Of a stretch of DNA of 64,000 nucleotides, positions 10,628 through 63,649 are shown one piece after another. The notes beneath the pieces are model-generated. The model did no database searches and had not been told where the DNA came from. It saw only the letters and a program-made list of their open reading frames with translations. Within the stretch, counting starts at the first letter, position 1; every line of letters starts with the position of its first letter. The stretch covers positions 32,001 to 96,000 of the IMG/VR virus record IMGVR_UViG_3300000976_000011, one strand, 5' to 3'. The position numbers and the translations under genes are program-made. The stretch is from a virus.

Positions 10628-10655
10628 TGTCAGCTCCTTATAAATATATTTAATA

Positions 10656-10711
10656 GAGGGACAGCAATTGTGCTCCATTGTTGAATTAAGCTGTAACTTA
10701 ATTCTAACCTC
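10656..10711. ncRNA. HNH-associated structured repeat element, copy 1
   Basis: GAGGGACAGCAAT..CTCC.TTGTT-hairpin-ACCTC; homologous copies at 19611 and 63126. Confidence 0.7.
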
Positions 10712-10747
10712 ATATAAATATTTATTAAAAATAACAAATTAAAAATT

Positions 10748-10987
10748 ATGAACTTAATAGAAGAATTGGAAGGAATTTTCGAAGTGGAAAATAATATCAT
10801 TTTAGATATCAACTTTGTAGGTTCTGAAGAAGATGCAATGAAAGTTGCTAAACAAAATGGTATTAAATTTAAAGGATCGAAAATGTCTGGTCCTAAAGAT
10901 ATGGTAATGAAATTTCTTACAAGCGATCAAAAAGTATTTAATATTGATGATTTAAAGAAAGAACAGCCAAATCTATTTAAAGGTTAA
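10748..10987 (+). CDS. small late protein downstream of uvsW
   Basis: Preceded by TATAAATA 10713-10720; N-terminal LIEELE recalls T4 internal-protein leaders (weak). Confidence 0.5.
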   Translation: MNLIEELEGIFEVENNIILDINFVGSEEDAMKVAKQNGIKFKGSKMSGPKDMVMKFLTSDQKVFNIDDLKKEQPNLFKG

Positions 10988-11008
10988 AAATAATTAATAT
11001 TTAAAATA

Positions 11009-11052
11009 TTCAAAAAGATTAAGTTATGTATAGCCGGCTTAATCTTTTTGAA
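11009..11052. terminator. long inverted repeat, probable bidirectional terminator
   Basis: TTCAAAAAGATTAAG...CTTAATCTTTTTGAA perfect stem. Confidence 0.6.
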
Positions 11053-11323
11053 AATAATTATATTATGCGAACAGTTTACATTTAATGAAAAATAGTATAT
11101 AATAAAAAAATTACAGCATTAATTATAAATTCTGATTTATAAAGTTAACTTTTCGATGGAACCGAAAAGAAGATTGGAACAATCTTTACATATTTATTTT
11201 ATATAATATAGATATTAAGAAAATCTATAAGAACCTTCTTATTATAATACAAAAAGGATCTAATGTATAATAAGAAATATAATAAAGCCAGATAAGGCTT
11301 AAAAGTCGATAAAAATAATAAGA

Positions 11324-11812
11324 ATGACTAAAAAGAAAAATGAATACTATATAGAACCTAAAGTCTTTATACCAGAACTTAAAGCTTGGAAAGAAGCTAG
11401 AGCTCTTGATCCTTCAGTACAGTGGAGCGATAGTTTATGTAAAAAGTTTATGAAGATTATTGAAGGTTTATCCCACCATAAAAGTTTTTCAGGCTATAGT
11501 TATATAGATGAAATGAAAGACGAAGCATTGTTTCATATTATGAAATATGGCCATAATTATAATCCCGATAAGTTAGATGATAAAGGAAGACCATATAATC
11601 CATTTTCTTATTATAATAGAATTGCTTGGCAAGCTTTTGTTTCTATCATTAATAAAGAAAAACATCAGCAAATGATTAAAGGTGAATATTTAAGAAAGAA
11701 TTATACTTTAGATAGCGAATTATTTCTTGATGGAGCTGAAGATCACACTCAAGCATTAGACATGATGGCAAAAATGTATGATGTAAAATCTAAAGAGACA
11801 GAAGATAAATGA
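11324..11812 (+). CDS. 55: late-transcription sigma factor gp55
   Basis: FSGYSYIDEMKDEA, NPFSYYNRIAWQAF..INKEKHQ; T4 synteny. Confidence 0.93.
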   Translation: MTKKKNEYYIEPKVFIPELKAWKEARALDPSVQWSDSLCKKFMKIIEGLSHHKSFSGYSYIDEMKDEALFHIMKYGHNYNPDKLDDKGRPYNPFSYYNRIAWQAFVSIINKEKHQQMIKGEYLRKNYTLDSELFLDGAEDHTQALDMMAKMYDVKSKETEDK

Positions 11813-12227
11813 AAGTAACTATAAAGAAAAGTATTAATTTAGAAATAAGTGGTAAGACCATTGAAATTTCAGAAGATGCAGCAAGAAATTTATTAGACCA
11901 ACTGGAAGATGTAATTAACGAATTGGATTATGAAGAAACAGAATTTGTTTTTAATTCAACAAAAATTAAATGGCCACCGGAGATTATATAATGAGATTAT
12001 TAGATTTAGAAACCGACATAGCTTTATATCATACTAATACTATTTGTGAGTTGATACGTGATAAGATTAATGAACAAAAGAAAGAAGTGTGTTATCCTCC
12101 TGAAGATTTCGAAGAGAAACTTCCTATGGATAACGAGATTATTATGAGTCTCATAGAGAATGAATTCAAAGAAGATTTCACTATTATAAAAAGAGCAGAA
12201 GACATTTTAATTAAATGGTAATACATA

Positions 12228-13304
12228 ATGACGAATAAAAAGGTCGTTATATTAGGCGACACTCATTTCGGATTTAAAAAAGCTTCAGATATATTTTCAA
12301 ATTATTTCGAAGACTTCTTAACAAATCAATTCTTTCCTTACTTGGAAGAGCACGATATTAAAGTAGTTATTCAATTAGGTGATCTTCTTGATAGCAGAAA
12401 ATATATTAATGCTAAAACTTTAAAATTTGTTAATGAAAAATATTTAGAAGAATTTGAAAAGAGAAAAATAACTCTCTATCAAATGGTAGGTAATCATGAT
12501 GTCTATTATAAAAATACCAATAAAATCAATTGGATAGATAACATACTAAGTTTTAGTAATTACGAATATGTCAATTTTTGTGATTCGTGGGAAACTTACG
12601 AGATATTTGGTGAGAAGTTTGATATTATTCCATGGATCAACGAAGAAAATGAATCTAAAATTTTTGACTTTATGGACAAGTCTAATTCTAAGTATCTATT
12701 TGGTCATCTAGAATTATCAGGTTTCGAGTTAACTCCTGGCCATTTTTCACAACATGGTCATTCTGTTAAACCATTTAAGAAATATGATAAAGTAGTTTCA
12801 GGACATTATCATATAAGAAGCAAGAAAGGTAATATTACATATGCAGGTATTCCTTATCAATTAACTTGGTCAGATTGTGACGATAAGAAAGGTTTCTGGG
12901 TTTTAGATGTAGAATCTAATAGAATGACTCATAAAGTTAACCCTAGAGCTATTTTTAAACGTATAGAATATGATGAAGACTTTATAGATATAAAAGATTT
13001 TGATTTTAATAGTTATGAAAATTCTTATGTTAAAGTATTTGTCAGGAACAAGAAGGATGATGCAAAATACAATGATTTCGTTACACGGCTTAATTCTATA
13101 GCAGTATATGATTTATCCATTATCACAAATAATGAAATCATAACTAACGATATAGATATTGAAGGTTTAGAAGTAGAAGACACTTTAACTATTCTTAGAA
13201 AATTTATTTTAAAGAATGTAAATGACAATATGAACTCAGATAATATAGTAAAACATGTAGAAAATTTATATAATGAAGGTCTAATTTTAATGAAGGATGT
13301 ATAA
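12228..13304 (+). CDS. 47: recombination endonuclease subunit gp47 (Mre11/SbcD-like)
   Basis: GDTHFG, LGDLLD, GNHD, GHLEL, SGHYH. Confidence 0.95.
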   Translation: MTNKKVVILGDTHFGFKKASDIFSNYFEDFLTNQFFPYLEEHDIKVVIQLGDLLDSRKYINAKTLKFVNEKYLEEFEKRKITLYQMVGNHDVYYKNTNKINWIDNILSFSNYEYVNFCDSWETYEIFGEKFDIIPWINEENESKIFDFMDKSNSKYLFGHLELSGFELTPGHFSQHGHSVKPFKKYDKVVSGHYHIRSKKGNITYAGIPYQLTWSDCDDKKGFWVLDVESNRMTHKVNPRAIFKRIEYDEDFIDIKDFDFNSYENSYVKVFVRNKKDDAKYNDFVTRLNSIAVYDLSIITNNEIITNDIDIEGLEVEDTLTILRKFILKNVNDNMNSDNIVKHVENLYNEGLILMKDV

Positions 13305-13997
13305 TGATTAAAGAATATACATCTAGTGCTATATTTGAGTATAGTAAAAAGCAAATTAAGTTCTTTGGGCCATATTCTATATTGGACATGAATCTAGCAG
13401 TTCTTAATATCTATAATTTAATTGTTAGTTTGTCTGATTTAGAATCATTTAAATTTGAGATAGATTCAGAAGAGTATAACTATATTGATATAGAGTATAA
13501 AATATTAGGATCAAAATTAACTATTATGTCGTTTTCTCCAGAATACTCAACTATTACGGAATACAATGAATAATCAAGAAATATTAAATTTGCCAATTAA
13601 AACCTGGTATGAGCCAGTAACTATTAGAGAATTCTTAAAAGATCTTTTAAAGGTTTTAATTGTTGAACAGGAATCTTTTTCAGGAAAACGACCTTTCGGA
13701 GATTCGGATTGGTTTTGGGTTTTATCTGAGCCTTTAGTAACGTATAAGCTTATAGATGGCAAATGCGACGATAATGGAATGATAGAAGATTTTAATCACC
13801 AAGAAGCCGAAGATTTATTTTTAAAACTTATAGATGCATTATGAAAAATAAAGAAACAGATATAGAGTATAATTTAATTAGAATGAATTTATGGAAAGAT
13901 GCATGGGTTTCAACAGCAAATTCTAGCTCATGCCGACTAACAGAAACTGCTACAAAATATGCTGATATAGCATTAACAGAGTTCGATATAAGATTTC

Positions 13998-14528
13998 CTA
14001 AGAATAGTATCTTTCCGGATACTTTGAATAATATTTAGCAAAAGTTTTATCATACTTGTAAAAATCGCGGTATGCCTGTACAGGATCATTATTATGATAT
14101 TTTTCAGGCATACATTGCGGAAAGTGAGTAATACCTTTATCCTGTAGTGAATCTGGAGCATAAGCCAATATATCTATTAGTTTAGTTTCACTAAGATGAT
14201 CGTTATTAAACCGCCTGCGGAACTCTTTACATAATTCGCTCCACATTTCATACATAAATTCGTAATTTGCTTTTGATTCTCGAACCCAAATAGCACTTGG
14301 ATGATTTACGTGAGTGGCTTTATATAATACATTTTCAAGAGCTTTATCAGGATGTTTCCACCGTTTAATTTTACGGCCTGATGAATCGTCAATGTATAAT
14401 TCGCCATCAAGCATACGATGAGCTGTAGACATCATTTGAGCATATTCAATAGGCATTTTTAAAACGTGCTCATTACAATGCATTTGCGCAGCTTTAATGG
14501 GATCTTGGTGTAATAAGAAAATGTTAAT
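13998..14528 (-). CDS. denV: pyrimidine-dimer DNA glycosylase (DenV-like); start extended to ATT at 14528
   Basis: (M)NIFLLHQDPIKAAQMHCNEHVLKM, HVNHPSAIWVRES..NY, PQCMP..Y...DPVQAYR..Y. Confidence 0.75.
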   Translation of the reverse strand: MNIFLLHQDPIKAAQMHCNEHVLKMPIEYAQMMSTAHRMLDGELYIDDSSGRKIKRWKHPDKALENVLYKATHVNHPSAIWVRESKANYEFMYEMWSELCKEFRRRFNNDHLSETKLIDILAYAPDSLQDKGITHFPQCMPEKYHNNDPVQAYRDFYKYDKTFAKYYSKYPERYYS

Positions 14529-14589
14529 GTTCTTTCTCCATAATAATCTTTAATTTATAAATATCACTATAAACCAAAAGATAACAAAT

Positions 14590-15216
14590 ATGAATAGACA
14601 TTTAAAAAGATATAATAAACTTATAGAATTTTTTAAAAATAATCCTAGAGACGGTCATTGCGAACTACATCATATTATACCTAAATGTATGAGTGGAACG
14701 GATGATAAAAATAATTTAATATTATTACCAACCAAGGCTCATTTTATTGCTCATTACTTACTTCATAAAGCATATCCAGATAATATAAAATTATCTCAAG
14801 CTTTTTCTATGATGTGCGTAAATAACAAAAGTCAAAAAAGAAGAAATACAGGAAAACTTTATGAAATTTCTAAAATAGCTAGATCTAATGCATTGAAAGG
14901 GGTTCCTAGACCTGAATGGGTAAAAGAAAAACTCAGAGTTCCTAAAAAGTCAAAAAAGAATTATATTGGTAGAAAACTATCAAAAGAAACTAAAGATAAA
15001 ATATCTAAAGCTAACAAGGGTAAAGCATTTTCTGAAGAACATAAAAAGAATTTAAGAATCTCAATGGAAAAAGTTTATCAAAAAAGAACAGAAAAAAGAA
15101 ATACAAAGGCTAAATCCTTTCAAGCTCTTTTTGATCAATTTGAAGGAACAAAGAAAGAATTCGCTAAAAGCCAACATGTAAATTATAGTACAATGAAAGG
15201 ATATTTGAGAAAATAA
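14590..15216 (+). mobile_element. HNH homing endonuclease with NUMOD3-like repeats
   Basis: ELHHIIPKC..NLILLPTKAHFIAH; TATAAATA at 14556-14563. Confidence 0.85.
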
Positions 15217-15906
15217 AAATAATTAGATATGATAGTATACTTCAACTAAAAAGAGGTTTATAATGATTGAATGGCCAAAAGAATATGTTGTAGACATTGA
15301 GAAGCCACCTATAGGGCCTCCAAATAGAGAACAATATTGTGGTATATTTTCATCAGGTGAAACTTCTGCATCTATTTTACAGGGTAAAAAGTGGAGTAAA
15401 TATATAGATGAATATCGAGATGCTCTCTATAATGATAAAAATGAGAGAATTTTACCAAAACTAGGAAAATTAGATTTAGAATGATAAAAGATAAAGAATG
15501 TATATTATTTTTCGCTTTCAGATATTCTTTAAAAAGACAAACTTATGCACCTAGCGTAGTTTGTGAAGAATTATTGAATTGTTGGCAAGATTTAAGTCAT
15601 AACGCTAAATTATCTATTTACAAAGAAATTAAAGATGATTATGATGATTTAGATTATATTAATAAAAAGATTTGGGATCAAATAATAGAAAAATATGAGT
15701 CAGAAATTAAATAGTGAGCATCCTGTTTTCAGTATGAGTAAATATGTTAAATCGGAAGATTTATATAAAGATAAAGCAGAATATTATGAGAAAGAATATA
15801 TTAAATGTTTAGTATTATTAAATAAAATTGAAGCGAACGTAGATAGATATTCTCAAGAGGGTGTTTATATTAAAACTTTAATAAGAGAATCATTCGAGGA
15901 TTAATT

Positions 15907-17619
15907 TTGTACATAAAATTTGAGAAGATATCATATAAGAATCTTTTATCAGTAGGCAACAATCCAGTAGAATTAAATTTTTTAGAAGCTCCGACCACAT
16001 TATTATTTGGCAAAAATGGTAATGGTAAATCTTCTATTATTGAGGCTATTCATTTTGCTCTTTATGGTAAAGCATTTCGGAAAATCGTTAAGAATCAATT
16101 AGTTAATAATGTTAATAAGAAAAACTTATTAGTTGAGTTGTGGTTTTCCATTGGCCAAAAAAGCTATAAAATAGAAAGAGGAATACGACCTAATATTTTT
16201 AATGTATATTGTAACGGTGAAAAATTAGATAACGACGCCTCCGCCGTCGATTTTCAAAAAGAATTAGAATTCACTATTCTTAAAATGACTCGCGAAACCT
16301 TTAGACAAATCGTCGTATTAGGTTCTACTTCTTATGTTCCATTTATGAGACTTAATAATCGCGATCGAAATTTAATTATCGAAGATCTTTTAGATATTCA
16401 AATATTTTCTAAAATGCTTATAGTTCTTAAACAGAAATTATCTCTGAATAAAAGAAGTTTAATAGACATCAATCACTCCATTGAACTTACAACTAATAGT
16501 ATAGTACATACGTCTGATCATATTGATAAAATTCAAGACAATAATGATAAATTAAAGAAAGATAATCAAAAACAAATTGATAATATTAAATCTAAATTAA
16601 ATAGATATACAAACGATAAAGAAAAGTTAAATCAGATGCTTATAGATAATGCACTTGATGATAATATTTTAGAAGAAAAAAGACAAGTTAGACAAGAAAT
16701 AGTAAATGCTAATATTTCTATAAAGAGTAACCTTAAAGAAGTTAATAAGCTTCTTGATTTCTTTGAGCACCAGGCTACATGTCCGACCTGTCAACAAGAT
16801 ATAACTGAAGAAACTAAAAAAGAAAAATTATTAGAGTTAGAATCTAAATCTTCAATGATGAAAGGCCGCTTGGACAAAAATAAAACCTTTGTATCTAAGG
16901 CTGATAAAAATATAGCAAAATATGAAGAACATACTAGAAAACTTGAAGAGCTTGCTAAATCTATAGAAGCCTTAACTATAAAAATTTCTCAAGAAAAAGC
17001 TCTTTTAAGAAGAGTTGATTCGGTAGTTGAGATAGATAATTCTGAATCTATTAAAAATTTAAAAGATTTGAATGTCGAGTTAAAGAAATTTATCAAGAAG
17101 CAACAAGAAATTAGTAAGTTTATAGAAGAATATCAATTTATTCAAGAGATTTTAAATGAAAATGGTATTAAGTCTTCTATTATTAAGACATATTTACCAA
17201 TTATAAATAAAATTATACAAAAGTATTTACAAATACTTGAATTTGATATAGAATTTGAATTCGATGAAACATTTGCTGAAAGAATTAAATTCGCAGGACG
17301 CGAAGATGTTCAGTATTTTGCATTATCTGAAGGTCAAAAACTAAGACTTGATTTATGTTTATTATTTACTTTTCGTGATGTCAGTAATCTAAAAAATTCT
17401 ACTTCTACAAATTTATTAATTTTTGATGAAATCGGCGGGAGTTCTCTGGATTCTGAAGGTATGGATTCTTATCTGCGTATTGTTTTTGAAGACGCTAATA
17501 AAGGAAGTAATATTTTAATTATTAGTCATGATAATTATATGCAGACGAATGATGTTCTAGATAGATCATTAGAATTTCGTAAAGATGGAACTTTCACCGA
17601 ACTATTACAAGAAAAATAA
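15907..17619 (+). CDS. 46: recombination endonuclease subunit gp46 (Rad50/SbcC-like ATPase)
   Basis: GKNGNGKS Walker A, CPTC zinc hook, LSEGQK, LIFDE. Confidence 0.95.
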   Translation: MYIKFEKISYKNLLSVGNNPVELNFLEAPTTLLFGKNGNGKSSIIEAIHFALYGKAFRKIVKNQLVNNVNKKNLLVELWFSIGQKSYKIERGIRPNIFNVYCNGEKLDNDASAVDFQKELEFTILKMTRETFRQIVVLGSTSYVPFMRLNNRDRNLIIEDLLDIQIFSKMLIVLKQKLSLNKRSLIDINHSIELTTNSIVHTSDHIDKIQDNNDKLKKDNQKQIDNIKSKLNRYTNDKEKLNQMLIDNALDDNILEEKRQVRQEIVNANISIKSNLKEVNKLLDFFEHQATCPTCQQDITEETKKEKLLELESKSSMMKGRLDKNKTFVSKADKNIAKYEEHTRKLEELAKSIEALTIKISQEKALLRRVDSVVEIDNSESIKNLKDLNVELKKFIKKQQEISKFIEEYQFIQEILNENGIKSSIIKTYLPIINKIIQKYLQILEFDIEFEFDETFAERIKFAGREDVQYFALSEGQKLRLDLCLLFTFRDVSNLKNSTSTNLLIFDEIGGSSLDSEGMDSYLRIVFEDANKGSNILIISHDNYMQTNDVLDRSLEFRKDGTFTELLQEK

Positions 17620-17752
17620 TGACTGAAGAGCCTAATTTTGTAGATTTAAAACTACATGATGCAGTAGAAAGATTTCTGGTAAATTCTATTGGAAAGAATA
17701 GAGAAAATTTAGAGAAAGCTAAAAAGCATTTGAATAATATAGAAAATACATT

Positions 17753-18298
17753 ATGAGAAAAACAATTTATTTTGATATGGATGGAACTTTAGCTGCGTAT
17801 CATCAACATATAGAATCTTTAGGAGTTGATTTAGAATCTATTACAACAGAAGAGGATTACGAAGAAAAAATCATTTTGCCTCATTTTGGTTCAGATATAT
17901 TTTTAAATCTTAATCCTCTTCCATTACTTAGTTATTTAAAGGAATGGTATGAAGAAACAACTTATTCTAAAACTAATATATTAAAGAAAAATATAGCATT
18001 TGTTAGTTTTGTTGGTCATCATAAGCATAATTTAAATTCTATTAAAATGAAAAGATTATGGTTGGAAAAAAATGGTCTAAACCGCATGGGTGAATTTATT
18101 CCACTGATTGGCCAATATGAAGATAGAGCATTATTAGCAGATAAAAACAGTTTACTTTTTGATGACTGTGAGTATACAATAGAACTCTTTATAAAAAATG
18201 GTGGTTAAGGAGTGACCGTACACCCAGATGTAACTGAAGTTACAGAAGAAGGATACGAAAAATTTAAAACAATAATTAATAACTTTTTGGAAAATTAA
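17753..18298 (+). CDS. HAD-family 5'(3')-deoxyribonucleotidase-like protein with an in-frame TAA at 18206-18208
   Basis: FDMDGTLA and LLFDD motifs; frame continues GVTVHPD... for 29 codons after the stop. Confidence 0.65.
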
Positions 18299-18301
18299 AA
18301 T

Positions 18302-19000
18302 ATGAAATTAACAGCAGACTTATTGTCGAAGCTAACCAAATTATCTAGAATCAATAATAGCATTGTATTAACTGAAGGTAATGTATTAGGTGTAAAACAA
18401 ACTGATGCTCATGTAGCAGATGTGATTTTAGAAGAGGCTATCCCAGCAGAAGCAGCAATTTATGATTTACCGCTCTTCATTAAGACTCTAGGATTATTCA
18501 ATGTTGATAATACTAAGTTAGAATTTTCTGATTCTAGAATCATTATTAAGTCAAAATCACAGAAAGCGTCTTATCTATTAACTGAAAAGCGCTTAATAGA
18601 CTCATGTGCGCCTTCTGCTTCAGTTCAGCAAGTAGCTTCTTCTGGTAAATTAGGTGAAGAACTTTTATCTTTTGAACTATCAGGAGAATTACTGGCTCAA
18701 ATTACTTCAAATGCTAAAACACTTGGTTTAGATCATATTTCTTTTGCTATGAAACAAGGTGTTCTTACAGTAACTATTTGTGATAAAAATAACCCAGGTG
18801 AAAATAGTATCGAAACTGTGGTAGCACAAGCTGATTCTCCAGAATTTGAATATGTGTTTTTAACTGAAGATTTCATGAAAATTCCAGCATCTATTTACAA
18901 TATGACATTCTATAAAGATGTAGCTTCGTTTACTCTTATATCAGATAATTTCAATATGTTCTTATGTGCAGACGCGGAATTCACAACTAAGGTTACTTAA
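18302..19000 (+). CDS. 45: sliding clamp gp45
   Basis: MKL...INNSI, AIYDL..F; position between 46 and 44. Confidence 0.88.
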   Translation: MKLTADLLSKLTKLSRINNSIVLTEGNVLGVKQTDAHVADVILEEAIPAEAAIYDLPLFIKTLGLFNVDNTKLEFSDSRIIIKSKSQKASYLLTEKRLIDSCAPSASVQQVASSGKLGEELLSFELSGELLAQITSNAKTLGLDHISFAMKQGVLTVTICDKNNPGENSIETVVAQADSPEFEYVFLTEDFMKIPASIYNMTFYKDVASFTLISDNFNMFLCADAEFTTKVT

Positions 19001-19580
19001 TACTCTTACAATTATCAAAATGATATCTTGTCATATTAGGCCCTGCTCCTTCTTTGTTACAATTAGGACAGGTAATTTTTTTAAATGGTTTACTTCTAGC
19101 TTTTGAAATTTTATCTTTAGTTTCTTTAGAAAATACTCTGTTTTTCATTTTAAGAATGCTTTCTTTAGAGTGCTCGCGCCCATACATAGGATTATTTTTA
19201 CCAGAATTATTATGGCTCATTTTACTCCTAGTTTCAATTGAAAGTATTTTTTCTGATAATATCTTAGAATGTTGTATTTTTAAGAAAGCATATAATTCTT
19301 TATCTATGATTTTATTGCTTATTCTAGACATCAAATTCCAAGCATAGATCATCTTTATTTTATCTTTTCCATCAGTAAAATAAGGAAGTAATTCGTGAAC
19401 TCTATAATGTTCCTTAGCGGTAAGTAGAACTAAGTTATCAGGATCATTGGATCCGCCTAATGATCTAGGAACTATATGGTGCTTTTCATAGTAAACTTCT
19501 TTAGATTTAATTCTTTCTTGTTTCTTAGCTTGGCTTATTATGTTATAATATTCATGATAAAATTTATTTTCAATAAACAT
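18993..19580 (-). mobile_element. HNH homing endonuclease (NUMOD3 + C-terminal zinc motif) inserted between 45 and 44
   Basis: EKHHIVPRSLGG..NLVLLTAKEHYRVH; NPMYGREHS; CPNC...RYHFDNCK. Confidence 0.88.
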
Positions 19581-19610
19581 ATTTAGTTACTCGTAATAAA
19601 TAAAAATTAT

Positions 19611-19669
19611 GAGGGACAGCAATGTGTTACTCCGTTGTTGGATAATACTTCCAATATTAACCTAACCTC
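19611..19669. ncRNA. HNH-associated structured repeat element, copy 2
   Basis: Same core as 10656 and 63126, flanked by convergent AATAAATA. Confidence 0.7.
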
Positions 19670-19685
19670 TAATAATTATTTATTA

Positions 19686-22016: not shown

Positions 22017-22091
22017 ATAGAAAGCGACAAGGAGAACTGATTGTTTTAGTCTTTCTCTTCTAGTCGTTTTTACATAAAATAAGGTTATATA

Positions 22092-26535: not shown

Positions 26536-27222
26536 ATGAACTATAAAAAGATATACGATTCTCTAATTGAAAGAGGATCGAATAGAAAATTAGAGTGCTA
26601 TAAAGAATCTCATCATATCCTACCTAGATGTATAGGAGGAACAGATGAAAAAGATAATTTAGTAGAATTAACCCCAGAAGAGCATTATTTAGCTCACCAA
26701 TTGTTAGTTAAAATTTATCCAGACGAAGCTAAGTTAGTTTATGCTGCTAATATGATGATTCCTAATAGATCGTCTAATAAAATGTATGGTTGGTTAAGAA
26801 GGAGATTCTCTAAAGAAATATCTATTAATCAAAAAGGTAAAGGTAATTCTCAAGCTAACACTTTTTGGGTAAGTAATATAAATGAAAGAAAAAACCTGAA
26901 ACTTAAAAAGGGTGATGATATTCCTTTAAATTACTTACCAGGTAGAAATCTTTGGAAAGAATTAGATAGGCAGTATGAATTAGAAAGAAACAAAGAAATA
27001 AAATTACAAAATAATATAGATAAAGCTAAAAAATACTATTTACTTTTTTGTGATTCTAATTATAATTCTTTAAAATCATTTGGAGAATCAAACATGTATC
27101 CGCATTCGTATATAAGTTTGTATAAGCTCTGGAAAAAATATTTGCCGGAATATAATGAAATATCCGGTCAAGGTAAAAGCATTAAAAAGATAATGGGGTG
27201 TAGCTCAGAGGCAGAGCAGTAG
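26536..27222 (+). mobile_element. HNH homing endonuclease inserted in the tRNA cluster
   Basis: ESHHILPRCIGG..NLVELTPEEHYLAH; its 3' end runs into tRNA-Lys. Confidence 0.88.
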
Positions 27223-45766: not shown

Positions 45767-46378
45767 TTAAATATGTTTACAATTATTGAAGTGGTATCGT
45801 TTCATAAGATTTAAACCTCCAACTTTAGAGCAGTGAGGACAAGAAACTTTTTCTTTAGGACCAAACATTTTATCTTTATTTTTTCTTGGTTTTCTCATTT
45901 TAGATAAAGTTTCTTCTGATTTCTTAGTACCATACTGTGGATGTTTTGAACCTGAAAAATCTGCATGATTTTTAGACATATTTCTTTTATGGTCCTCTGA
46001 TTTGGGTACTCCATATAGTGGTGAAAGTTTTCCTTTATATTTTGATGCTGCAATCGATAACTTCTTTTTAGTTTCGTTAGATGTAGGTTTTCTAGTATAA
46101 GTACTGGCTCCACCTTCTTTAAGATTATAATATAAAGAACTATTAACGGCGTCAACAGACTTTATATATGATTCCTCTTTATTATTTAAATCTTGTAAGT
46201 CTTCACATATTTGAAGAATTTTCCTAGAAAAATGCTCTTTACCATATTTCCTAATAGCCTTATGTAATAAAGTTCCTGAACCTAAATAATTATCGTCCAA
46301 ATAGCCAAAATGTTGACCTATATACTTTTTCTTATTAATTAGATTTGTTGTTTCATAAACAAAGTGTATTTTAGACAT
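45767..46378 (-). mobile_element. GIY-YIG homing endonuclease with NUMOD3 and C-terminal zinc motif
   Basis: FVYETTNLINKKKYIGQH, YLGSG; CPHC...RYHFNNCK. Confidence 0.9.
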
Positions 46379-52391: not shown

Positions 52392-52414
52392 AAATATATT
52401 TATAGGAGTTCAAT

Positions 52415-54057: not shown

Positions 54058-54311
54058 TGAATATATCTAAAGAATTAAAAGATTTAATAATGGAAAAATC
54101 AATAGAAATTTCTCGCGAATTATATGAAGAGGAAACAGATCGAGGAATTGTAGGCGCTGAGACTACTATTGATTTAATTTATGAAAAGGAAATTTATAAA
54201 TTAACAATTTCGGCCTTCTGGGAAAAATGTAATTATTTTGATTATCATATAACAGATGGAAAAACCTCAAGAAGTCAGGTGGTTGCTGGCTATTTCTAAA
54301 TAAATAATATT

Positions 54312-56371: not shown

Positions 56372-56947
56372 ATGACTAAAATTTGTAGCATGACAGATAT
56401 AGAAGCTGTGGGCACCACTGGAGACACTGGTATCCTTTCAGTGTCTACCGTTATCTTTGACTTTGAAGATCCTCAAAAGAATTACATAGATGAATTTACA
56501 ACTTACTTAGATGTTAAAGATCAAATTGAAAGATTAGGTCGAACGTTTAGCAAAGATACTATGGACTGGTGGAAAAAACAAGACCCTGCAGTTTTTAAGT
56601 CTCAATTTGCTGGTAAAACTAAGATTGAAGATGGTCTTACTAGCTTATTAAGCTTCTTTGATAATCATGAATGTGATTGGCATTTTGCTAAAGGTGTGCA
56701 TTTTGATATGGCTATTTTAAAAGATGCTTGTCATTCACTAAATCTTAATGATCATCCATTTATTAAAGAGTTTTGGAAGTGGCAATGTTGTGCTACTATC
56801 GGCAGACAATATGAATATGAATTAGGTGAGAAATGGTTAGTTAATAATATGACTCGTAAATATAATAAAGAATTTGGTGCATCACATGATCCGTTAGTTG
56901 ATTGTAAAATTCAAATTGAAATCTTAAAAGACTTTACGGTACGATAA
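56372..56947 (+). CDS. dexA: DEDDh 3'-5' exonuclease (DexA-like)
   Basis: DIEAVG, T.DWW..Q, G.HFDMAIL, HDPLVDC. Confidence 0.8.
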   Translation: MTKICSMTDIEAVGTTGDTGILSVSTVIFDFEDPQKNYIDEFTTYLDVKDQIERLGRTFSKDTMDWWKKQDPAVFKSQFAGKTKIEDGLTSLLSFFDNHECDWHFAKGVHFDMAILKDACHSLNLNDHPFIKEFWKWQCCATIGRQYEYELGEKWLVNNMTRKYNKEFGASHDPLVDCKIQIEILKDFTVR

Positions 56948-57277
56948 TATGCCTTGTACAATATATGAAGATAGAGCAAAAACAATTGTTGAACCTAGTA
57001 GAAACTCATTAGATAAAATTAAAGTTAAAAATTTAGAAGCGTGTTTGTGCGCCGTTTTAAGAGAACTAAATAGAAGAAATCTATTAACAGATATTTTAGA
57101 ATCTTCTTCTATTAAGGGTAAAGTTGATGTGCAATCATGGTGGGAAGAGCACAGAAAAGCTGATATCAATAGAATCTCAAAAGTTATTGCTGATTTCTCT
57201 GAAGATGATAAAGAACTCACTCACATTACTGACGAAGAAGTAATAAAGCATCTTAATACTACTTCTAGATACACATA

Positions 57278-57529
57278 ATGGATCGTAGAGGATTTTTAAA
57301 GAATATTATGATTGCGGGAGTTGCTCCCGCTTTCATAAAAAGCGAATCTTTAATGGGTTTATATGTACCTGAACCAGAGATTATATTTTTAAATGCAAAA
57401 CACGGAACAGAGCTTATATTTTTAAATGCAAATAGAGGAACAGAAATAATAGTGCATAAAGCTCGAATGGATTATGATACAGGCATTATTCGGTGTCCAT
57501 ATATTCCACAAACGAAATTAATAACTTAA
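57278..57529 (+). CDS. Tat-signal small protein with capsid-like C-terminal motif
   Basis: MDRRGFLK twin-arginine motif; YDTGIIRCPYIP. Confidence 0.6.
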   Translation: MDRRGFLKNIMIAGVAPAFIKSESLMGLYVPEPEIIFLNAKHGTELIFLNANRGTEIIVHKARMDYDTGIIRCPYIPQTKLIT

Positions 57530-57941
57530 CAGGAGTAAAATATGTTTGAATCAATTGGTAATTTTTTAGATAATGTATGGGGTGGATTATTTTCATTTAA
57601 TCCTTTAGATCCTTGGGCCGCAGGCTTTTATTTTTTACCATTAGTTATTTGTGCTATCTCGTATATTTTTGAAACAATATCAGATTTAGCAATAGATGCT
57701 CGTCATTTAAAAGAATATAATAATGGTGATCATAGTTATTATGATCCGAAAACTACAGTTGGATTAATTCTAGGTAGAGCCTTTTTAACTGTACTACCAG
57801 CTGTTAATATATTTGTAGCTATCTTTTCTAGACTTGGACAAATTTTAGATTGGCTAGGAAAAACATTTAATATAGCTATTATAGGAAAGAAGCAATCCAG
57901 ATCATTTGAAGAAACTCAAAAAGTAAAAGCAGCAAAAAGAA

Positions 57942-58186
57942 ATGCATCGTAGAGGATTTTTAAAGAATATTATGAAAGCGAATCTTTAATGGGTTTATTT
58001 GTACCTGAATCTAAAATACAATCCTTATATAAACCCATATTAATATCTATGCCAAGAAAAATATATCCTCTTTCAATTATTGAAGATGTAAATGAAGTTA
58101 AACCTGTCATAAACGACAAAGAAAAACTTAAAGAAATGAATGAAAATATAAACGATAATTTAGGTATAATTATTGAATTTGTATAA
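57942..58186 (+). pseudogene. paralogous Tat-signal gene with 28-nt deletion; downstream part 57989-58186 open
   Basis: Near-identical 5' DNA to 57278, lacking 57311-57338 equivalent. Confidence 0.65.
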
Positions 58187-58218
58187 GTAAATAAATATCT
58201 CTATATGAGGTATTTTAA

Positions 58219-58794
58219 ATGAAACGGATAGCAATTAGTATAGGACATTATCCAGAGAAATCTGGTGCAAGATTTGAGGATCTTATTGAACATGAAATAG
58301 CTGGCGAATGGGTCGACAAGATTTTAGACACTTTCGACGATATATATGACTTCGATTGTGAAGAACCAATATTTGAATTTATTCCTGTTCCAGTAGGCAC
58401 CCTTAGAGAAAAAGTAAAGTGGATTAATAGTCATGATTTTGATTATGCTATTGAAATGCATTTTAATTCAGTTGGTGGTGCTATAGTATCAGGAGCAGAA
58501 ACCCTTTATATGCCTGGTAGCTATAGAGGTAGACAATTTGCATCTATAGTTCAAGATTACACAATAGTTCCTTTAAATATTAGAGATCGCGGTATTAAAG
58601 AAGGACTTTACTGGTCTTCTAGAGAAAGAACAAATACTCCTTTATATTTTTTAAGAAGAACAAATTGTCCTGCTATTATTATGGAACCAGAGTTTCTTCA
58701 ATCATATAAAAGGACTATAAATAATCGTAAGATAGTAGATTTTTGCTACGCTTTAATCGATGCTCTAGAAACAGTTGTTCTAGATGAAATTTAA
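58219..58794 (+). CDS. N-acetylmuramoyl-L-alanine amidase (Amidase_3), probable endolysin
   Basis: ISIGH, E, IEMHFNS, GAETLY, FLRRT.CPAIIMEP; late-type AATAAATA upstream. Confidence 0.88.
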   Translation: MKRIAISIGHYPEKSGARFEDLIEHEIAGEWVDKILDTFDDIYDFDCEEPIFEFIPVPVGTLREKVKWINSHDFDYAIEMHFNSVGGAIVSGAETLYMPGSYRGRQFASIVQDYTIVPLNIRDRGIKEGLYWSSRERTNTPLYFLRRTNCPAIIMEPEFLQSYKRTINNRKIVDFCYALIDALETVVLDEI

Positions 58795-58813
58795 CAAAAA
58801 GAGAAAATATAAA

Positions 58814-59368
58814 ATGAGTTTAACTAAAATAAAAGGCGTCGGCGAAAAAGTAGCTAAGTCTATTACAGAATTAACAGGTATTAGTACGCTTGAAGATTTT
58901 GCAGTGATTGATCAAGACACTATTCAAAAAATTGCTGATGAGGTTCCTGGTGGTCCAGCTAAAGTAGCTGGTTGGGTTGAGCAAGCTAAAGGATTAGTTG
59001 ATGTTGTGGTTGAGGAAGAAATTGTTGATCCTGAAGCTGAAATTCAGGAAGATGAAGAAGAAACAACCGTTGAAGATGTTGTTGAAGATTCTGAGGAAGT
59101 TGAGGAAACTATTGAAGAAAATCCTGCAGATATTGTTGTTTCTGATGTTGTCGATGATAATATTTCTGATGATGCTGTTGAAAAGTTAGATGTTTTAGAT
59201 TGGTTTGAATTGAAAGGAATGAATATGCTAGAGCTTGGTTACGCTCGATCGAGCATTTTAATCGCTGCAGCTTCATATTATGGATTAGAGAAGCGTGATG
59301 TATTAAAGAATATTAATTTAAGTATTAGCACCAAAGATAATCTATTAAAGGCTATTAAAGGCGTTTAA
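58814..59368 (+). CDS. HhH-domain protein with long acidic linker
   Basis: LTKIKGVGEKVAK helix-hairpin-helix; E/D/V-rich middle. Confidence 0.55.
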   Translation: MSLTKIKGVGEKVAKSITELTGISTLEDFAVIDQDTIQKIADEVPGGPAKVAGWVEQAKGLVDVVVEEEIVDPEAEIQEDEEETTVEDVVEDSEEVEETIEENPADIVVSDVVDDNISDDAVEKLDVLDWFELKGMNMLELGYARSSILIAAASYYGLEKRDVLKNINLSISTKDNLLKAIKGV

Positions 59369-60037
59369 TATGATTATAAGAGAAGAATGGTACTAATTAA
59401 AAGGAGCTTATTGCTCCTTTTAATTTTACTATTATTAACAAGTGTTATATAATGTTTAAAATTAAAAATATATTAATAATGGAGTTTTATCATGCATCAA
59501 GAATTTCAATTTCAGAATTACATCATACGCCATACTGAAAATAAAAGTATCGCTTTCCACAAAACTTTTAAAGATAGATTTCAAAAATTTGTTGGATTGG
59601 ATGCAGTATCTCAAGCCAAAGATTGGGTAAGAAATTTCTGTGAAAAATCAAGAACTTCTTGGAAAAATGTAAATCAATGTTGTATAAGTTTTAATTCTAC
59701 ATTCATTTATGATATAATGGGCGAAGAAGATTTCTTTTCATTTGATATGATTAAAGAAGCCGATGACATATTTTTTAAAGTTTATTGTGATTATAACAAA
59801 GGTCAATTTAAAACATATGGAAAATCTACTAGAAAGAAGCCTTGTGTTGGAGCCGAATGGCATGGTTCACCGAATTTAATTGAACAGAATAGATTTTTGC
59901 CAAATGCTAGATACTCTTTAGAAGAAATTGAAAATAATACTTTTAAATTAATATTTGATAGTATCATTGAAGATAAGTCCCAGAGATACTCTTTAGGTAT
60001 TCCTGGAATAATGTTTTATAGTATGAGGAAATAAATT

Positions 60038-60298
60038 ATGAGAAATTCTGGCTTTACTTTGATAGATCTAATGATTGTTATATCCATTATTGGAATTTTA
60101 GCTGCGGTTGATTTATACTTTCTTTATCAAGATTGGAAAAATCAAAAATTAAGCGGAGAAAATAGCCCAAATATAATTAAAATGGATAGTATATCTGACA
60201 TTACAAAAGAAGAAAGATTTGCTCAATTATTAGTTGAAAAGCATAGAATTGAAAAGGAAATAGAGAGGTTAAGTAAATTAGAGAAGCTTGTAAAGTAG
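60038..60298 (+). CDS. type IV pilin-like N-terminal methylation-motif protein
   Basis: MRNSG/FTLIDLMIVISIIGILAAV. Confidence 0.75.
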   Translation: MRNSGFTLIDLMIVISIIGILAAVDLYFLYQDWKNQKLSGENSPNIIKMDSISDITKEERFAQLLVEKHRIEKEIERLSKLEKLVK

Positions 60299-60468
60299 GA
60301 ACATGCATTTTATCTCTTGAAGATAATAATGTAACACCTCTTATTCAAGTCAAGCAATAATATTTTACTTTTATTATTTATTAGTATATAATTAAATTCC
60401 TTATATAGATGATTTAATATTAATTTAATTGAGGAACATATTATGAATTAGTTAATAGAAATATTAAC

Positions 60469-60499
60469 AAAAATGGGAACCTAATGGTTCCCATTTTTT
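60469..60499. terminator. bidirectional intrinsic terminator
   Basis: AAAAATGGGAACC/GGTTCCCATTTTTT between convergent units. Confidence 0.75.
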
Positions 60500-60561
60500 A
60501 TTCTTCGATTTTAAATAAATTTTTAATTGTATTGAATAATTCCTTTAATCCAAATTTTCTT

Positions 60562-61002
60562 TTATCCAAAAATAAGATTATTGATATTACTCCTACACCT
60601 AGCAAGATAATTATTAATTCTTTTTCCATAACCTATCCCGGCTCCCCCAGCAAGTATAAGTTGTAACAATAAAAGATTAACGGAGATAATCCAAGAAATC
60701 TCTGCTTCCGCAATCTCGGCTATTTTAGGTAAATCAATAATCACTCGCAGACAATATAGATATGCTATTGCATGATTTATTTCATTACCTTTTAAATCTT
60801 TACATCCTATTAATGCTATAACAGCTCCAACTAAGAAAGAGAATGACGAGAAATCATTCAAATTAAAAGTTGGTAATAGAAGACCTAATGTATTTGTAGT
60901 AAAAAGAGCTATAGATACTTGTTTATTGTGTTTAAAGCATATAAAGGAAGTCAAATATACTATTAAAAATATTATGTTCTCCATCATAAAATTTGTTATC
61001 AT
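60562..61002 (-). CDS. multi-pass membrane protein in a small minus-strand membrane-protein operon
   Basis: Several hydrophobic segments; overlapping neighbours include unlisted single-TM ORFs. Confidence 0.55.
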   Translation of the reverse strand: MITNFMMENIIFLIVYLTSFICFKHNKQVSIALFTTNTLGLLLPTFNLNDFSSFSFLVGAVIALIGCKDLKGNEINHAIAYLYCLRVIIDLPKIAEIAEAEISWIISVNLLLLQLILAGGAGIGYGKRINNYLARCRSNINNLIFG

Positions 61003-62479
61003 CTTCTTGTACCACCGAATCTTCTGAAATCTTCAGTTGTTAATTTACGATAACCTAAATCTTGATAACCTTCTGATAATGCTTTATGTGCTATTTCTAC
61101 TCGTTCAACCGCAGCTAAAGCTTCATAAACGTAAGATCTAATTTCACCTAAATCTACATTCTGTACTACTTCATCATCTAAATCTTTGTTAGTATCTTTT
61201 AAAGCTTGTTCTAAACAATCTAAAGCCTGATTAGTATACTTTAAATATTTTACTCTGGCTTTTGAAAGCATATATCCAGTTAATATCTGACTATCTAATG
61301 GTTCTCTTTTATCAGTCATCTTCCTTTTCCTCAAGTTTTTCAACGTCCTTTTCTAACATCTCTAATCTATATAAGATTAGTTCAATTTTACCATCGTGTT
61401 TTATCAGCATAGCAGCTCCAGCCAACAATGCTGTAAATATAATTGTAATAAAAGCTGAGCCAATCTTATCCTTTAATCCATTCATATTGATTGACTTAAT
61501 GTTCTCTTTTTGATTGATTTTAAATATTTATTAAAAAATGATTCACTTTTCGCTATAAATTGATTATAATATTCATATTAGTTAAACAAAATAGGAAACT
61601 TATATTATGACTATCAATAAAAATACAGTAATTGAAAATCGAGACAAAATTAATGAGTATTTAAAAGCATTAGGTGATCTTTTAGATATGGATTTCCATG
61701 CTGGAAATTGTAGCTATGACGGCGATAAAGCTACTTATAAATTAGAAATGCGAGCCCGTCGAACTGATGGCAAATCAACTCAAGAAGTAGAATTTGAGAA
61801 AAATAAGTTGAGACATTTTGGCTTATTTAATGTTGAATTTGGTGATACTTTCAAAGATCGAAGAGGCGAAACTTTTTCTGTAGCTGGATGTGCAGCTAGA
61901 AGAAACAAATATTCTTTATATGGTAAATCTAATAATGGTAAAACTTATAAATTTGCTATTGAAGATGTAACATTTGACCGAGTTGGTTCTGATGCATATA
62001 TGGATGCAGATTTAGCTCAATAAAATAGGAAACTTATATTATGAAAGTAGCATATAATGGTTGTTATGGCGGATTTAGTCTTTCGCCTTTCGCGGAAACT
62101 ATTTACCAAGAACTTAAAGGTTTGACTTTAACTTGGTATGAGGGAATAGGTAGATATCCATACACTTCATATAAAAAGATAGACGATATTGAGTCTTATA
62201 AAAACTCTTCTATATTTGGTTTGTCTCCATCAAAGGTTGATTTAGGTGAAAATCCTAAAGAGATTCCAAATGAGCACTATTATTATAATGAGTGGGCAGA
62301 TGAAGATCGCTCAGATCCTGACTTAATAGCGGTGATTGAGAAGCTAGGTGAAAAGGCTAATGGTATGTGTGCAAATTTGTGTATTGAAGAGATTCCTGAT
62401 GGAGCAGAATATGAAATTGATGAGTATGACGGCTTCGAATCAGTAGTTCCGCCGCGCTGGCGGTGGTAAAATAATTGTT

Positions 62480-63100
62480 TTACTTAAATTTACAGTTAGA
62501 AAAATGATATCTTTTCATATTGCCAGTGCCGCCTTCTTTTCTACAATAAGGGCATTTAATTATTTCTTGAGGCCCTTTAGATTTTCCCTTACCACTTTTA
62601 GACATTTTCTTTCTGGTTTCCTTAGTGTGAGTTTTACCATAAAAAGGATTACCTGAACCCATTCTGTTTTTAGATTGATTTAATTTTCTTTCTTCGGAAT
62701 GTGGAATGTTTGATAAATGGTGCTCTCCTTTCTTTATTTTAAAGCTCGGATGATTCACGCCGCTTATAGACTTCACAAATTTTAATCTTGTTTCTTCATA
62801 TAAGTTAGATTTATATTTTTTATTAAAATTAGACATCATGTTCCAAGCTGCTAGCATCTTAAAAAGAGATTTACCTTTTGTAAACTTTGTTAACAAAATA
62901 TGTGCTATATAATGTTCCCTAGCTGAAAGTAGTACTAGGTTCTCAGGATCATCTGAACCGTCCATAGATCTAGGTATTATATGGTGTGATTCATAATAAA
63001 TTTCTGCAGTTTTAACTCGATTAAGCTTACTTCTAGATTCCATTAAGTTATAATACCATTTGGAATATTTGTTAATAATAAAATCTCTATGAATAAACAT
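62480..63100 (-). mobile_element. HNH homing endonuclease with NUMOD3 and C-terminal zinc motif
   Basis: ESHHIIPRSM..NLVLLSAREHYIAH; NPFYGKTH; CPYC...RYHFSNCK. Confidence 0.9.
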
Positions 63101-63125
63101 ATTTGCTCCTTATAAATAAAATTAT

Positions 63126-63181
63126 GAGGGACAGCAATGATGCTCCGTTGTTTCCTTAAGCTACAACTTAAGGATTACCTC
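63126..63181. ncRNA. HNH-associated structured repeat element, copy 3
   Basis: Flanked by convergent TATAAATA (63111-63118 plus, 63191-63198 minus). Confidence 0.72.
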
Positions 63182-63193
63182 AATTTTTAATAT

Positions 63194-63649
63194 TTATAGA
63201 AAGTCTGTATTTACCATTCCCTTTTCAGTTAATATAGAAAACTGCCAACCTTTTTTCTTAGCATATATTTTAGCCGCTTTCCACTTAGCAACATTTATTA
63301 TATATGTTGTTGCTTTATCCTCCCACTTTTTAGTTTTACGTTTCGGCTTCTTGGGTTGCTGAGTTTGGTCATATGGCTTAATTTCTACTATAGCTTCTTT
63401 AATAATTCCATTCTTATCTCTGAATTTCATATATACATCCATAAAGTACCGGTGAAATTTACCTGTTGTAGGTTTCTTATAAGGTATCACAACTTCTTCG
63501 CTGGACCAAGCAATAACGTTTGGATTTCTATCCATTTTTAAGAAATAGTTCAATTCCCAGCTGCTCCGATATACTATTTTTGTATAATCACCTTTATATT
63601 TTTTAGGGTTTTTAGGTGTAAATTTACCCTGATGATTAAATAATATTAT
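63194..63649 (-). CDS. 4: head completion nuclease gp4 (start uncertain)
   Basis: GKFTPKNPKKYKGD...YRSSWE, WSSEE..IPY, HRYF.D, EIKP..QT, N.AKWKAA, ILTE. Confidence 0.92.
   Translation of the reverse strand: MILFNHQGKFTPKNPKKYKGDYTKIVYRSSWELNYFLKMDRNPNVIAWSSEEVVIPYKKPTTGKFHRYFMDVYMKFRDKNGIIKEAIVEIKPYDQTQQPKKPKRKTKKWEDKATTYIINVAKWKAAKIYAKKKGWQFSILTEKGMVNTDFL

Follow-up and report, generated by a model that had tools for sequence, protein, structure and literature searches.

An uncultured T4-like phage genome of 141,675 bp harbours four copies of a short element upstream of HNH genes, three of them inside the 64,000-nt stretch of DNA analysed here (the window) and one outside it. What is this element, and what does it do to the genes that it accompanies? 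The first-pass annotation had read it as a small RNA that silences or partners the nuclease, either C4-antisense-like or an RNA cofactor. Our analysis upholds a structured RNA that folds on the plus strand, accompanies mobile nuclease genes and has a loop co-varying with the ribosome-binding region of the gene, a co-variation that fits a silencing RNA; the cofactor role and membership in the C4 family are not supported. We consider it somewhat probable that the element is an RNA scaffold made from a late promoter, with a loop that pairs with the ribosome site of the nuclease. On the sequence evidence, its likeliest role is that of a portable brake that limits translation of the nuclease.

Copies of the element and their partner genes

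The three copies in the window, all on the plus strand, lie where the first-pass annotation had placed them: copy 1 at 10656-10711, copy 2 at 19611-19669 and copy 3 at 63126-63181, with covariance model scores of 77.1, 73.1 and 75.1 bits and P2 loops at 10669-10676, 19624-19633 and 63139-63146, respectively. Copy 4 (L048:1074-1131, which is 125473-125530 of the genome) is located upstream of a fourth minus-strand HNH gene. Scanned over the whole genome, the covariance model finds these four copies at 73-77 bits and no other match. The 13-mer that opens the window's copies occurs exactly 3 times in the window; looser matches to it number 7, which is the shuffled expectation.

As had been claimed, the element stands 5' of minus-strand HNH genes, three of them intact (copies 2, 3 and 4) and one a remnant (copy 1). 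The intact genes are of the MobE type, with HNH and NUMOD3 domains in all three and 36-41% identity to T4/T6 MobE. The homing endonuclease gene at copy 2 (18993-19580, minus strand; NUMOD3 3e-13, HNH 6e-7) is inserted between gene 45 and gene 44, which are 18-26 nt apart in the closest cultured relatives. Its counterpart at copy 3 (62480-63100, minus strand) was assigned by domain search and MobE similarity. The remnant at copy 1 (10475-10626, minus strand) aligns at 50% identity with residues 176-215 of the HNH protein of copy 4. No more than the C-terminal ~45 residues can still be recognised; it has lost the catalytic part and every Pfam domain, and has kept the start codon and the Shine-Dalgarno region. 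No conserved motif was found at the 3' ends of the HNH genes.

Copy 1 appears mosaic, with a P3 like that of copy 3 and a gene remnant and ribosome site like those of copy 4. Intact cassettes are kept beside decayed nuclease genes at copy 1 and also in the comparison of L088 with L142, and this retention hints that cassette promoters have been co-opted by neighbouring phage genes.

Fold, strand and flanking promoter motifs

Every copy forms a three-way junction of 56-59 nt. The stems P1, P2 and P3 are those first described, with the refinements that P2 has 7 bp and that P3 of copy 2 contains one A.A mismatch. An invariant 5' core and a 3' junction close the 4-bp P1, and the two variable stems, P2 and P3, keep their pairing through compensatory changes. 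Among the four local copies 97% of the pair cells are paired and 8 pairs are changed on both sides (0/500 shuffles); in an alignment of 17 sequences from 13 contigs these values rise to 98.7% and 87 cells (0/500 shuffles), with one both-sided swap in P1. The structure, for which the first-pass annotation had proposed a covariation test, beats all 500 shuffles with four copies already. A G.U pair in P2 is conserved in 16 of the 17 sequences. Thermodynamics alone was unconvincing as support, with z-scores of -1.0 to -3.4; the lowest belongs to copy 3, whose minimum free energy structure is the three-way junction (z -3.4).

The fold functions on the plus strand only, opposite the HNH gene. The mirrored P2 of the minus strand is just 71% paired, and the energy of the three-way junction is -6 to -13 kcal/mol on the plus strand and +0.6 to -7 kcal/mol on the minus strand.

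Late-promoter octamers converge on the element from both strands in each of the four copies, at 7-10 nt from P1; for the three in the window the first reading had noted convergent late promoters. On the plus strand, the complement of the Shine-Dalgarno sequence is followed by the octamer at copy 1 (10633-10637, then 10639-10646) and at copy 3 (63104-63109, then 63111-63118), and at copy 2 the complement of the ribosome-binding region (19586-19592) precedes the octamer at 19595-19602. In each of the four copies the facing minus-strand octamer, which would serve the HNH messenger, stands clear of the element by 7-9 nt; it is late-promoter-like at copy 1 (10719-10726, 7 nt from P1) and copy 2 (19677-19684) and a late-promoter octamer at copy 3 (63191-63198). 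Across the genome (31% GC) the 8-nt motif shows no overall enrichment. No terminator is predicted downstream of the element, and sigma-70-like matches at the element occur only at the level of shuffles. Opposite-strand promoter motifs, with the geometry expected of a cis-encoded antisense regulator, are present and conserved; an RNA started there would overlap the HNH messenger at its 5' end.

The element might instead work as DNA, either as operator half-sites for the nuclease or as a module for recombination that shuffles cassettes. Direct repeats of 5-8 bp do flank the plus-strand promoter, copy 1 has the mosaic look described above (P3 against gene remnant and ribosome site), and I-TevI sets a precedent for autorepression by binding an operator over its own late promoter (PMC2988022). 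For recombination the model would be the PeSLs of T4-like phages, in which a terminator hairpin is followed by an early promoter of the sigma-70 type and for which recombination is the presumed mode of action (PMC4122927). Like PeSLs, the elements are regulatory cassettes, short and conserved, that recur within one T4-like genome where variable genes begin or end; unlike them, they have late-type promoters, no predicted terminator and a covarying three-way junction. Compensatory changes in three helices and the conserved G.U pair point to RNA, the invariant core is common to unrelated nuclease families, and neither the sigma-70 promoter nor the terminator that marks a PeSL is present; we regard a DNA-level role as very improbable.

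Loop, ribosome site and relatives in other phages

The loop and ribosome-site strings quoted in the first-pass annotation are present in all three window copies. The P2 loop of copy 2 contains the same 7-mer as 19586-19592 and that of copy 3 the same 6-mer as 63104-63109; in copy 4 the match is 8/9, and the lone difference still permits a G.U pair. Against an exact-string null the four copies give p about 7e-4, and by helix length with G.U allowed p about 0.04, a weak value in this AT-rich genome. Nor is the match cognate-specific within the genome: 9 nt of the copy-1 site can be paired by the loop of copy 4. Taken by themselves, the four copies give the match no more than moderate support.

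Strict patterns derived from the local copies returned chance matches only, in GC-rich coding DNA of viral and metagenome contigs. A looser pattern combined with the covariance model yielded about 30 further matches in other uncultured phage contigs, with relatives scoring 27-47 bits over the full model. The search patterns required the core sequence, and the breadth and variability of the family are therefore under-sampled. In this family the late-promoter octamer lies 5-11 nt before P1 on the scaffold strand, a feature partly imposed by one search pattern, although a second search without it recovered the same loci, along with three hits judged to be chance (L164, L166 and L169). The loci of relatives of the HNH proteins or of gp44 gave no credible covariance-model match. 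The best non-self HNH relatives are 44-51% identical, and the element is absent from the two such loci fetched, one with a 28-nt upstream gap and the other overlapping a preceding TnsA-like gene. HTVC008M, Melnitz and Mosig, the cultured phages nearest to this one with gp44 identity of about 41%, gave no match.

The relatives fall into two configurations. In type A, that of the phage studied here, 5-10 nt complementary to the ribosome-binding region of the divergent nuclease gene recur in the P2 loop, and a facing promoter follows 15 of 18 copies. In type B it is the P3 loop that pairs, in cis, with the Shine-Dalgarno sequence of a downstream gene (p about 5e-5), and a facing promoter follows 0 of 12. 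Contig L094 has both, for paralogous genes. The type B scaffold shares the sense strand with the gene that it faces, which gives independent evidence of the orientation in which the scaffold functions. With the relatives added, the evidence for the loop/ribosome-site match is strong: the strings vary from cassette to cassette, and in type A the longest string shared by cognate loop and site averages 6.2 nt, compared with 3.8 nt for non-cognate pairs, a value reached in 0 of 20,000 permutations (p about 5e-5). When the local pairs were cofolded, the P2 loop landed on the Shine-Dalgarno sequence in 4 of 4. The helices between loop and site are short, with little net binding predicted (-0.6 to -9.5 kcal/mol). 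Unconstrained duplex energies were discarded as a test, as they do not separate cognate from non-cognate pairs. Target-site duplication was also rejected as the source of the repeated string: the repeats are of unequal length (5 to 10 nt), and bases to either side of the presumed insert pair with each other in P2 and show compensatory changes.

The sequences show the fold, its strand, the promoter motifs and the co-variation of loop and ribosome site; from there we infer that the element is transcribed, pairs in vivo and represses its neighbour. It would belong to an uncatalogued family of three-way-junction RNAs driven by late promoters, with an invariant junction core and two stems free to vary, whose job may be to display a loop that can pair with the ribosome-binding region of a mobile nuclease gene. 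The RNA would be read from the plus strand, divergently from the HNH gene, with a predicted 5' end 2-4 nt before P1. The HNH messenger would begin at the facing promoter beyond the element and, starting on the far side, would carry the antisense of the scaffold as its leader. The P2 loop of the plus-strand RNA could then pair with 5-8 nt of the HNH Shine-Dalgarno sequence and spacer and also, by definition, with the identical copy of the string in the HNH leader. The predicted outcome is that nuclease translation is held down late in infection.

It is distinctly unlikely that the HNH leader itself is the working molecule, its second Shine-Dalgarno sequence being a standby or decoy site or belonging to a coupled short upstream frame, and its invariant stretch acting as an anti-Shine-Dalgarno. 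GGAG is indeed followed by TTG or ATG after 5-7 nt in 4 of 4 local copies, the short frame of the three intact copies ends 6 nt before, 1 nt before and 13 nt after the HNH start, and in copies 3 and 4 the minimum free energy structure has the invariant stretch paired to the true site. Yet P2 is not formed on the minus strand, relatives such as L107 and L111 have not conserved the start codon, peptide conservation is at most four residues with frame shifts among the copies, and the type B scaffold is oppositely oriented relative to its gene. The upstream reading frame was demoted on account of its lack of conservation in relatives and these shifts. The variable bases are unable to pair with the invariant stretch, and a search for a third co-varying partner on the HNH messenger found none, which leaves pairing of the plus-strand loop in trans as the sole explanation covering the variable bases.

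The overlap of the two transcripts could itself be the mechanism, with convergent late transcription over the ~60 nt element causing interference or a processed duplex and the loop match being secondary. That the facing promoter is specific to type A (15/18 and 0/12), that both predicted starts lie 2-4 nt outside P1 and that the two RNAs are complementary along the whole element all speak for it. It leaves unexplained, however, both the co-variation of the loop with the true ribosome site, which is outside the overlap, and the cis anti-Shine-Dalgarno loop of type B on the same scaffold. We hold this reading to be rather unlikely.

A role as RNA cofactor or guide would account for the constant physical linkage with nuclease genes, and the relative L129 adjoins a TnpB-like gene, of a family known for guide RNAs. 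But the scaffold stands beside at least five unrelated nuclease or mobile-gene families (HNH, GIY-YIG, TnpB-like, DUF7487 and DUF4379), mostly classical protein-only homing endonucleases with NUMOD3 motifs, a range which fits a generic translational brake and not a protein cofactor. The variable loop matches the ribosome site of the gene itself, not a plausible DNA target, and the type B scaffold is a plain leader acting on the Shine-Dalgarno sequence in cis. A cofactor is the least probable reading, and we consider it extremely so.

Comparison with known systems and meaning

When the covariance model was built and Rfam was scanned, as the first-pass annotation had proposed, no already described motif was matched. 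At gathering thresholds Rfam 15 finds only tRNAs, and the elements are without a match even at E up to 5, which argues against membership in the C4 family (RF01695). A sub-threshold hit to SAM-III (21 bits, cut-off 45) was judged to be chance. The c4 antisense RNA of P1 and P7 is a small structured RNA, excised from the same transcript as its target, whose loops pair at a ribosome-binding region and co-vary with it; it controls an antirepressor. The element shares the loop pairing at a ribosome-binding region and the co-variation between relatives, but its RNA is predicted to be read divergently from its own late promoter and its targets are mobile nucleases. In IS10 RNA-OUT/RNA-IN, hok/sok, symE/SymR and P22 sar, facing promoters produce a structured antisense RNA that blocks the translation start of a costly gene, and the overlap itself covers the ribosome site. 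Facing promoter motifs and an overlapping 5' region are predicted here as well, but the plus-strand promoter sits between element and ribosome site, and the overlap ends about 25 nt before that site, covering neither it nor the start codon; instead a separate loop string matches. The target is a nuclease of 195-220 residues, not a small toxin or transposase.

Among T-even homing genes, I-TevI, I-TevII, I-TevIII, segB and Aeh1 mobE have simple hairpins in the sense messenger that sequester the ribosome site, and late transcripts escape the hairpin because a late promoter is nested inside it (PMC2988022). Common to both are T4-type homing endonuclease genes, a late promoter beside an RNA structure and, as proposed here, a limit on translation at the Shine-Dalgarno sequence. 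Here, however, it is the opposite strand that has the conserved fold, a three-way junction, and the loop of the sense strand is identical and not complementary to the site, with no sense helix involving the Shine-Dalgarno sequence, and the late promoter lies outside the whole element, so placed that transcripts lacking the 5' arm are not predicted. The T4-like cyanophage S-PM2 has an antisense RNA, CfrI, linked to a homing endonuclease gene (Millard et al. 2010, as cited in PMC2984593); it is about 225 nt, antisense to the coding region and psbA, with no described conserved fold or loop/site match. Dassa et al. 2009 (PMC2677866) describe conserved 5' UTR hairpins with TATAAATA that precede free-standing endonucleases of the GIY-YIG and Vsr-like kinds in marine metagenomes. 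These share with the element a late-promoter box and conserved motifs before free-standing homing endonucleases of uncultured marine phages; as described there, they differ in being simple hairpins on the sense strand, like that of Aeh1 mobE. The core string of the element is absent from the text of that paper, whose motif sequences stand in a figure.

It is possible, and we suggest it tentatively, that a single portable and re-programmable scaffold serves at least five unrelated mobile nuclease families, with an invariant junction (possibly a protein docking site) and a rewritten loop aimed at any ribosome-binding site, deployed as a cis leader or as a divergent trans RNA. Homing endonucleases need enough expression to spread and little enough to spare the phage, and T-even phages are known to control them by simple hairpins and by autorepression. 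If the proposal is true, a scaffold with a rewritable loop, used in cis or from the opposite strand by unrelated nucleases, would be a general and so far uncatalogued solution to this control. It would add a new RNA family to phage annotation, account for many of the seemingly 'empty' gaps of 100 nt that adjoin nuclease genes of uncultured T4-like phages, and offer a compact natural design for programmable translational repression.

The phage and its copies of the element

On sequence grounds this phage is a distant T4-like myovirus, with a genome of 141,675 bp, terminal repeats and 30.7% GC; the window covers bases 32001-96000 of it. Its clamp loader shares ~41% identity with the clamp loaders of Pelagibacter phage HTVC008M and Methylophilales phage Melnitz, and no close relative of the phage was found in any collection searched. 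The element is a putative small RNA encoded on the plus strand, opposite an adjacent minus-strand HNH gene. The three copies reported in the first-pass annotation (window 10656-10711, 19611-19669 and 63126-63181) are present at those positions, and the 13-mer that opens the element occurs exactly three times in the window. A fourth copy lies outside the window, at genome positions 125473-125530 (L048:1074-1131, L048 being another stretch of this phage). The covariance model R1, built from these four local copies, scores them at 73-77 bits and has no further match in the phage genome, even at E = 10.

In total the genome contains about eleven genes or remnants of MobE-like type; where the element is absent, the layout differs from that at the loci that have it. 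Three of the four copies stand ahead of an intact MobE-like gene that carries HNH and NUMOD3 motifs, the exception being copy 1, where an intact cassette adjoins a gutted gene in which just the final ~45 residues of a copy-4-type protein survive. At this locus a 67-codon frame (window 10475-10678, minus strand), with its ATG inside the element, continues in the same frame into the remnant of the HNH C-terminus and is probably a by-product of the deletion; the annotated-looking start codon of the remnant, at 10626, opens a frame of only 14 codons. Copy 2 and its gene have been inserted between genes 45 and 44; in the closest cultured relatives these two genes are spaced by 18-26 nt. The HNH protein of copy 3 has its closest outside relative, at 44% identity, in two other sequences (L069:683-1811 and L070:158-1286). 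There, as at copy 3, the HNH gene directly follows a TnsA-like (gene 4-like) gene, which it overlaps by 8 nt, and it has no scaffold.

Additional MobE-like fragments, all without the scaffold, occur at window 26542-26823 (plus), 14647-15117 (plus) and 45770-46018 (minus), one of them inside a tRNA cluster. Four further MobE-like HNH genes or remnants, together with one GIY-YIG gene, lack a Shine-Dalgarno sequence and carry the T4-type late-promoter octamer exactly 5 nt ahead of the ATG (at window 52391, 49541 and 35565 on the minus strand and 32457 on the plus strand, and at genome 23711 on the plus strand). This arrangement suggests that leaderless late messengers are a second way of expressing homing endonucleases in this phage.

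Fold, promoters and loop match in the local copies

The consensus fold is a three-way junction, in which a 4-bp stem (P1) and a 2-nt junction lead to a 7-bp stem (P2) with an 8-10 nt loop, followed by a directly abutting stem of 7-8 bp (P3) and a 4-nt junction back to P1; RNAalifold returned the same fold from the four copies. The preserved pairing claimed for the element is borne out, with standard pairs in 97% of pair cells, a level unapproached by any shuffle or slid register. Both sides change in eight pairs. All seven pairs of P3 vary in this way across the four copies, and P2 has a single A-U to U-A swap, in copy 4. The fold belongs to the plus strand. The mirror structure on the minus strand loses P2 and is 71% paired, with one position never paired, and evaluated energies are -6 to -13 kcal/mol for the plus strand versus +0.6 to -7 for the minus strand. 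Whole-element minimum free energies (MFE) are similar for the two strands, because P1 and P3 are symmetric.

Each copy has a plus-strand octamer 7-10 nt before P1, overlapping the region just upstream of the HNH Shine-Dalgarno sequence, and a second octamer on the minus strand 7-9 nt beyond P1. In T4, late transcription initiates about 6 nt after the octamer; by this rule the 5' end of either predicted RNA would fall 2-4 nt outside P1, and the two RNAs would overlap across the whole element. These promoter calls are motif-based. The octamer is not enriched genome-wide, so the evidence is its conserved position at the copies rather than its mere presence. No terminator was predicted after the element. 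The complement of the facing octamer gives each RNA a U-rich stretch just past the fold, and any bearing of this stretch on the RNA 3' end is speculative.

The plus-strand P2 loop carries a string complementary to the HNH ribosome-binding sequence, with match lengths of 5, 7 and 6 nt in copies 1, 2 and 3, respectively; in copy 4 the loop matches at 8 of 9 nt, and the lone difference still permits a G.U pair. Against all other gene starts of the genome, an exact-string test gave a combined p of about 7e-4, while a helix-length test with G.U allowed gave a p of only 0.04; within the genome the loop-to-site match is not cognate-specific. When the four local pairs were cofolded, the P2 loop lay on the ribosome site in every case, and the net gains were small (-0.6 to -9.5 kcal/mol). 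No third, co-varying complement was found on the HNH messenger. The HNH leaders of this phage also contain a short reading frame; it was considered as a functional feature and judged unlikely, since it is not conserved among the relatives.

Relatives in other contigs and two configurations

Relatives were gathered through sequence-anchored patterns. Strict first patterns found none, and a looser one, consisting of the promoter and a 9-nt core, gave 90 stretches; R1 had full-length matches in about 24 loci of this set, some at positions outside the pattern's own picks. A second pattern, in which the plus-strand promoter was optional, picked up ten of these loci again along with a few new ones. 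In most relatives the MFE fold is the three-way junction or close to it, despite entirely different P2 and P3 sequences. An alignment of 17 sequences drawn from 13 contigs has 98.7% of its pair cells paired, and 87 cells are changed on both sides versus 24 expected. Fitting this alignment to the model favours the structure, but pairing is visible in the raw sequences as well. P1 shows one G-C to A-U swap, and 16 of the 17 sequences retain a G.U pair in P2.

The relatives fall into two configurations. In type A, which has the layout of the window copies, the start of the opposite-strand gene immediately precedes the scaffold's promoter, and 5-10 nt of the ribosome-site complement recur in the P2 loop, the matched strings varying between cassettes. 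Cognate matches average 6.2 nt versus 3.8 for non-cognate ones, and none of 20,000 permutations reached the observed sum; this test is conservative, as loops were taken automatically and some are mis-set. The proposed match of the loop to the ribosome-binding site of its own gene is moderately supported by the four local copies and strongly supported once these relatives are included. One type A relative (L167:4685-4750 and L170:6747-6812) has its 9-nt loop match on the start-codon complement and not on the Shine-Dalgarno sequence. Type B copies have a short P2, and here it is the P3 loop that can pair in cis with the Shine-Dalgarno sequence of a same-strand gene 20-33 nt downstream; cognate and non-cognate pairs separate with p about 5e-5. 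Of the type A copies, 15 of 18 have a facing promoter beyond the element, versus 0 of 12 of type B. One contig, L094, carries type A twice and type B once, with three paralogous genes. In type B, the short P2 loops often contain a palindrome of 4-6 nt, with cores such as GATC, GGCC, TTAA or AGCT (for example L087:7955-8010, L128:6899-6954, L147:1011-1060, L123:4412-4464 and L152:10901-10950), which could allow loop-loop dimerisation.

Three scaffolds are identical (L088:10373-10426, L139:3363-3416 and L142:3755-3808), and a DUF7487 gene adjoins the L142 copy. Relative to L142, the other two have an 885-nt deletion, with about 11 nt shared at the junction, that removed most of the nuclease gene (its 5' part) and the ribosome site and left the promoter and scaffold.

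Proposed mechanism, known systems and partner genes

As far as sequence comparison goes, type B shows the orientation in which the scaffold would function and its apparent purpose, an anti-Shine-Dalgarno loop held against the ribosome site. The type A scaffold faces away from its gene, so its loop could reach the site only between molecules; such intermolecular pairing is the only reading that would account for the co-varying bases. The element resembles anti-Shine-Dalgarno regulators in its predicted working and, in type A, also cis-encoded antisense RNAs. An Rfam scan gave no match of any family to the element, which places it outside the C4 family. Neither of the two defining features of the T-even scheme of a hairpin with a nested late promoter (PMC2988022) is present in the element. 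Among published antisense RNAs we found only one, CfrI of S-PM2, that is linked to a homing endonuclease of a T4-like phage, and it has no described fold in common with the element (PMC2984593). Dassa et al. (PMC2677866) described hairpins, conserved and accompanied by a late-promoter box, in front of free-standing endonucleases of marine origin; these hairpins may include the scaffold.

We favour a reading in which the plus-strand RNA would damp HNH translation late in infection. The facing promoter would give the HNH messenger a leader comprising the scaffold antisense and a second copy of the target string, and the overlap of the two RNAs may add interference, processing or titration. The element had also been proposed as an RNA cofactor of the HNH nuclease; the breadth of partner families argues against this, as they include HNH, GIY-YIG with NUMOD3, TnpB/OrfB_IS605-like, DUF7487 and DUF4379 zinc-finger proteins. 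The TnpB/OrfB_IS605-like gene, with a Cas12f-like TNB domain, lies at L129:3504-4757 (minus) beside a type A scaffold at L129:4781-4840 (plus), whose loop repeats 8 nt of the region preceding the start codon of that gene. With such a partner, the cassette is not restricted to classical homing endonucleases.
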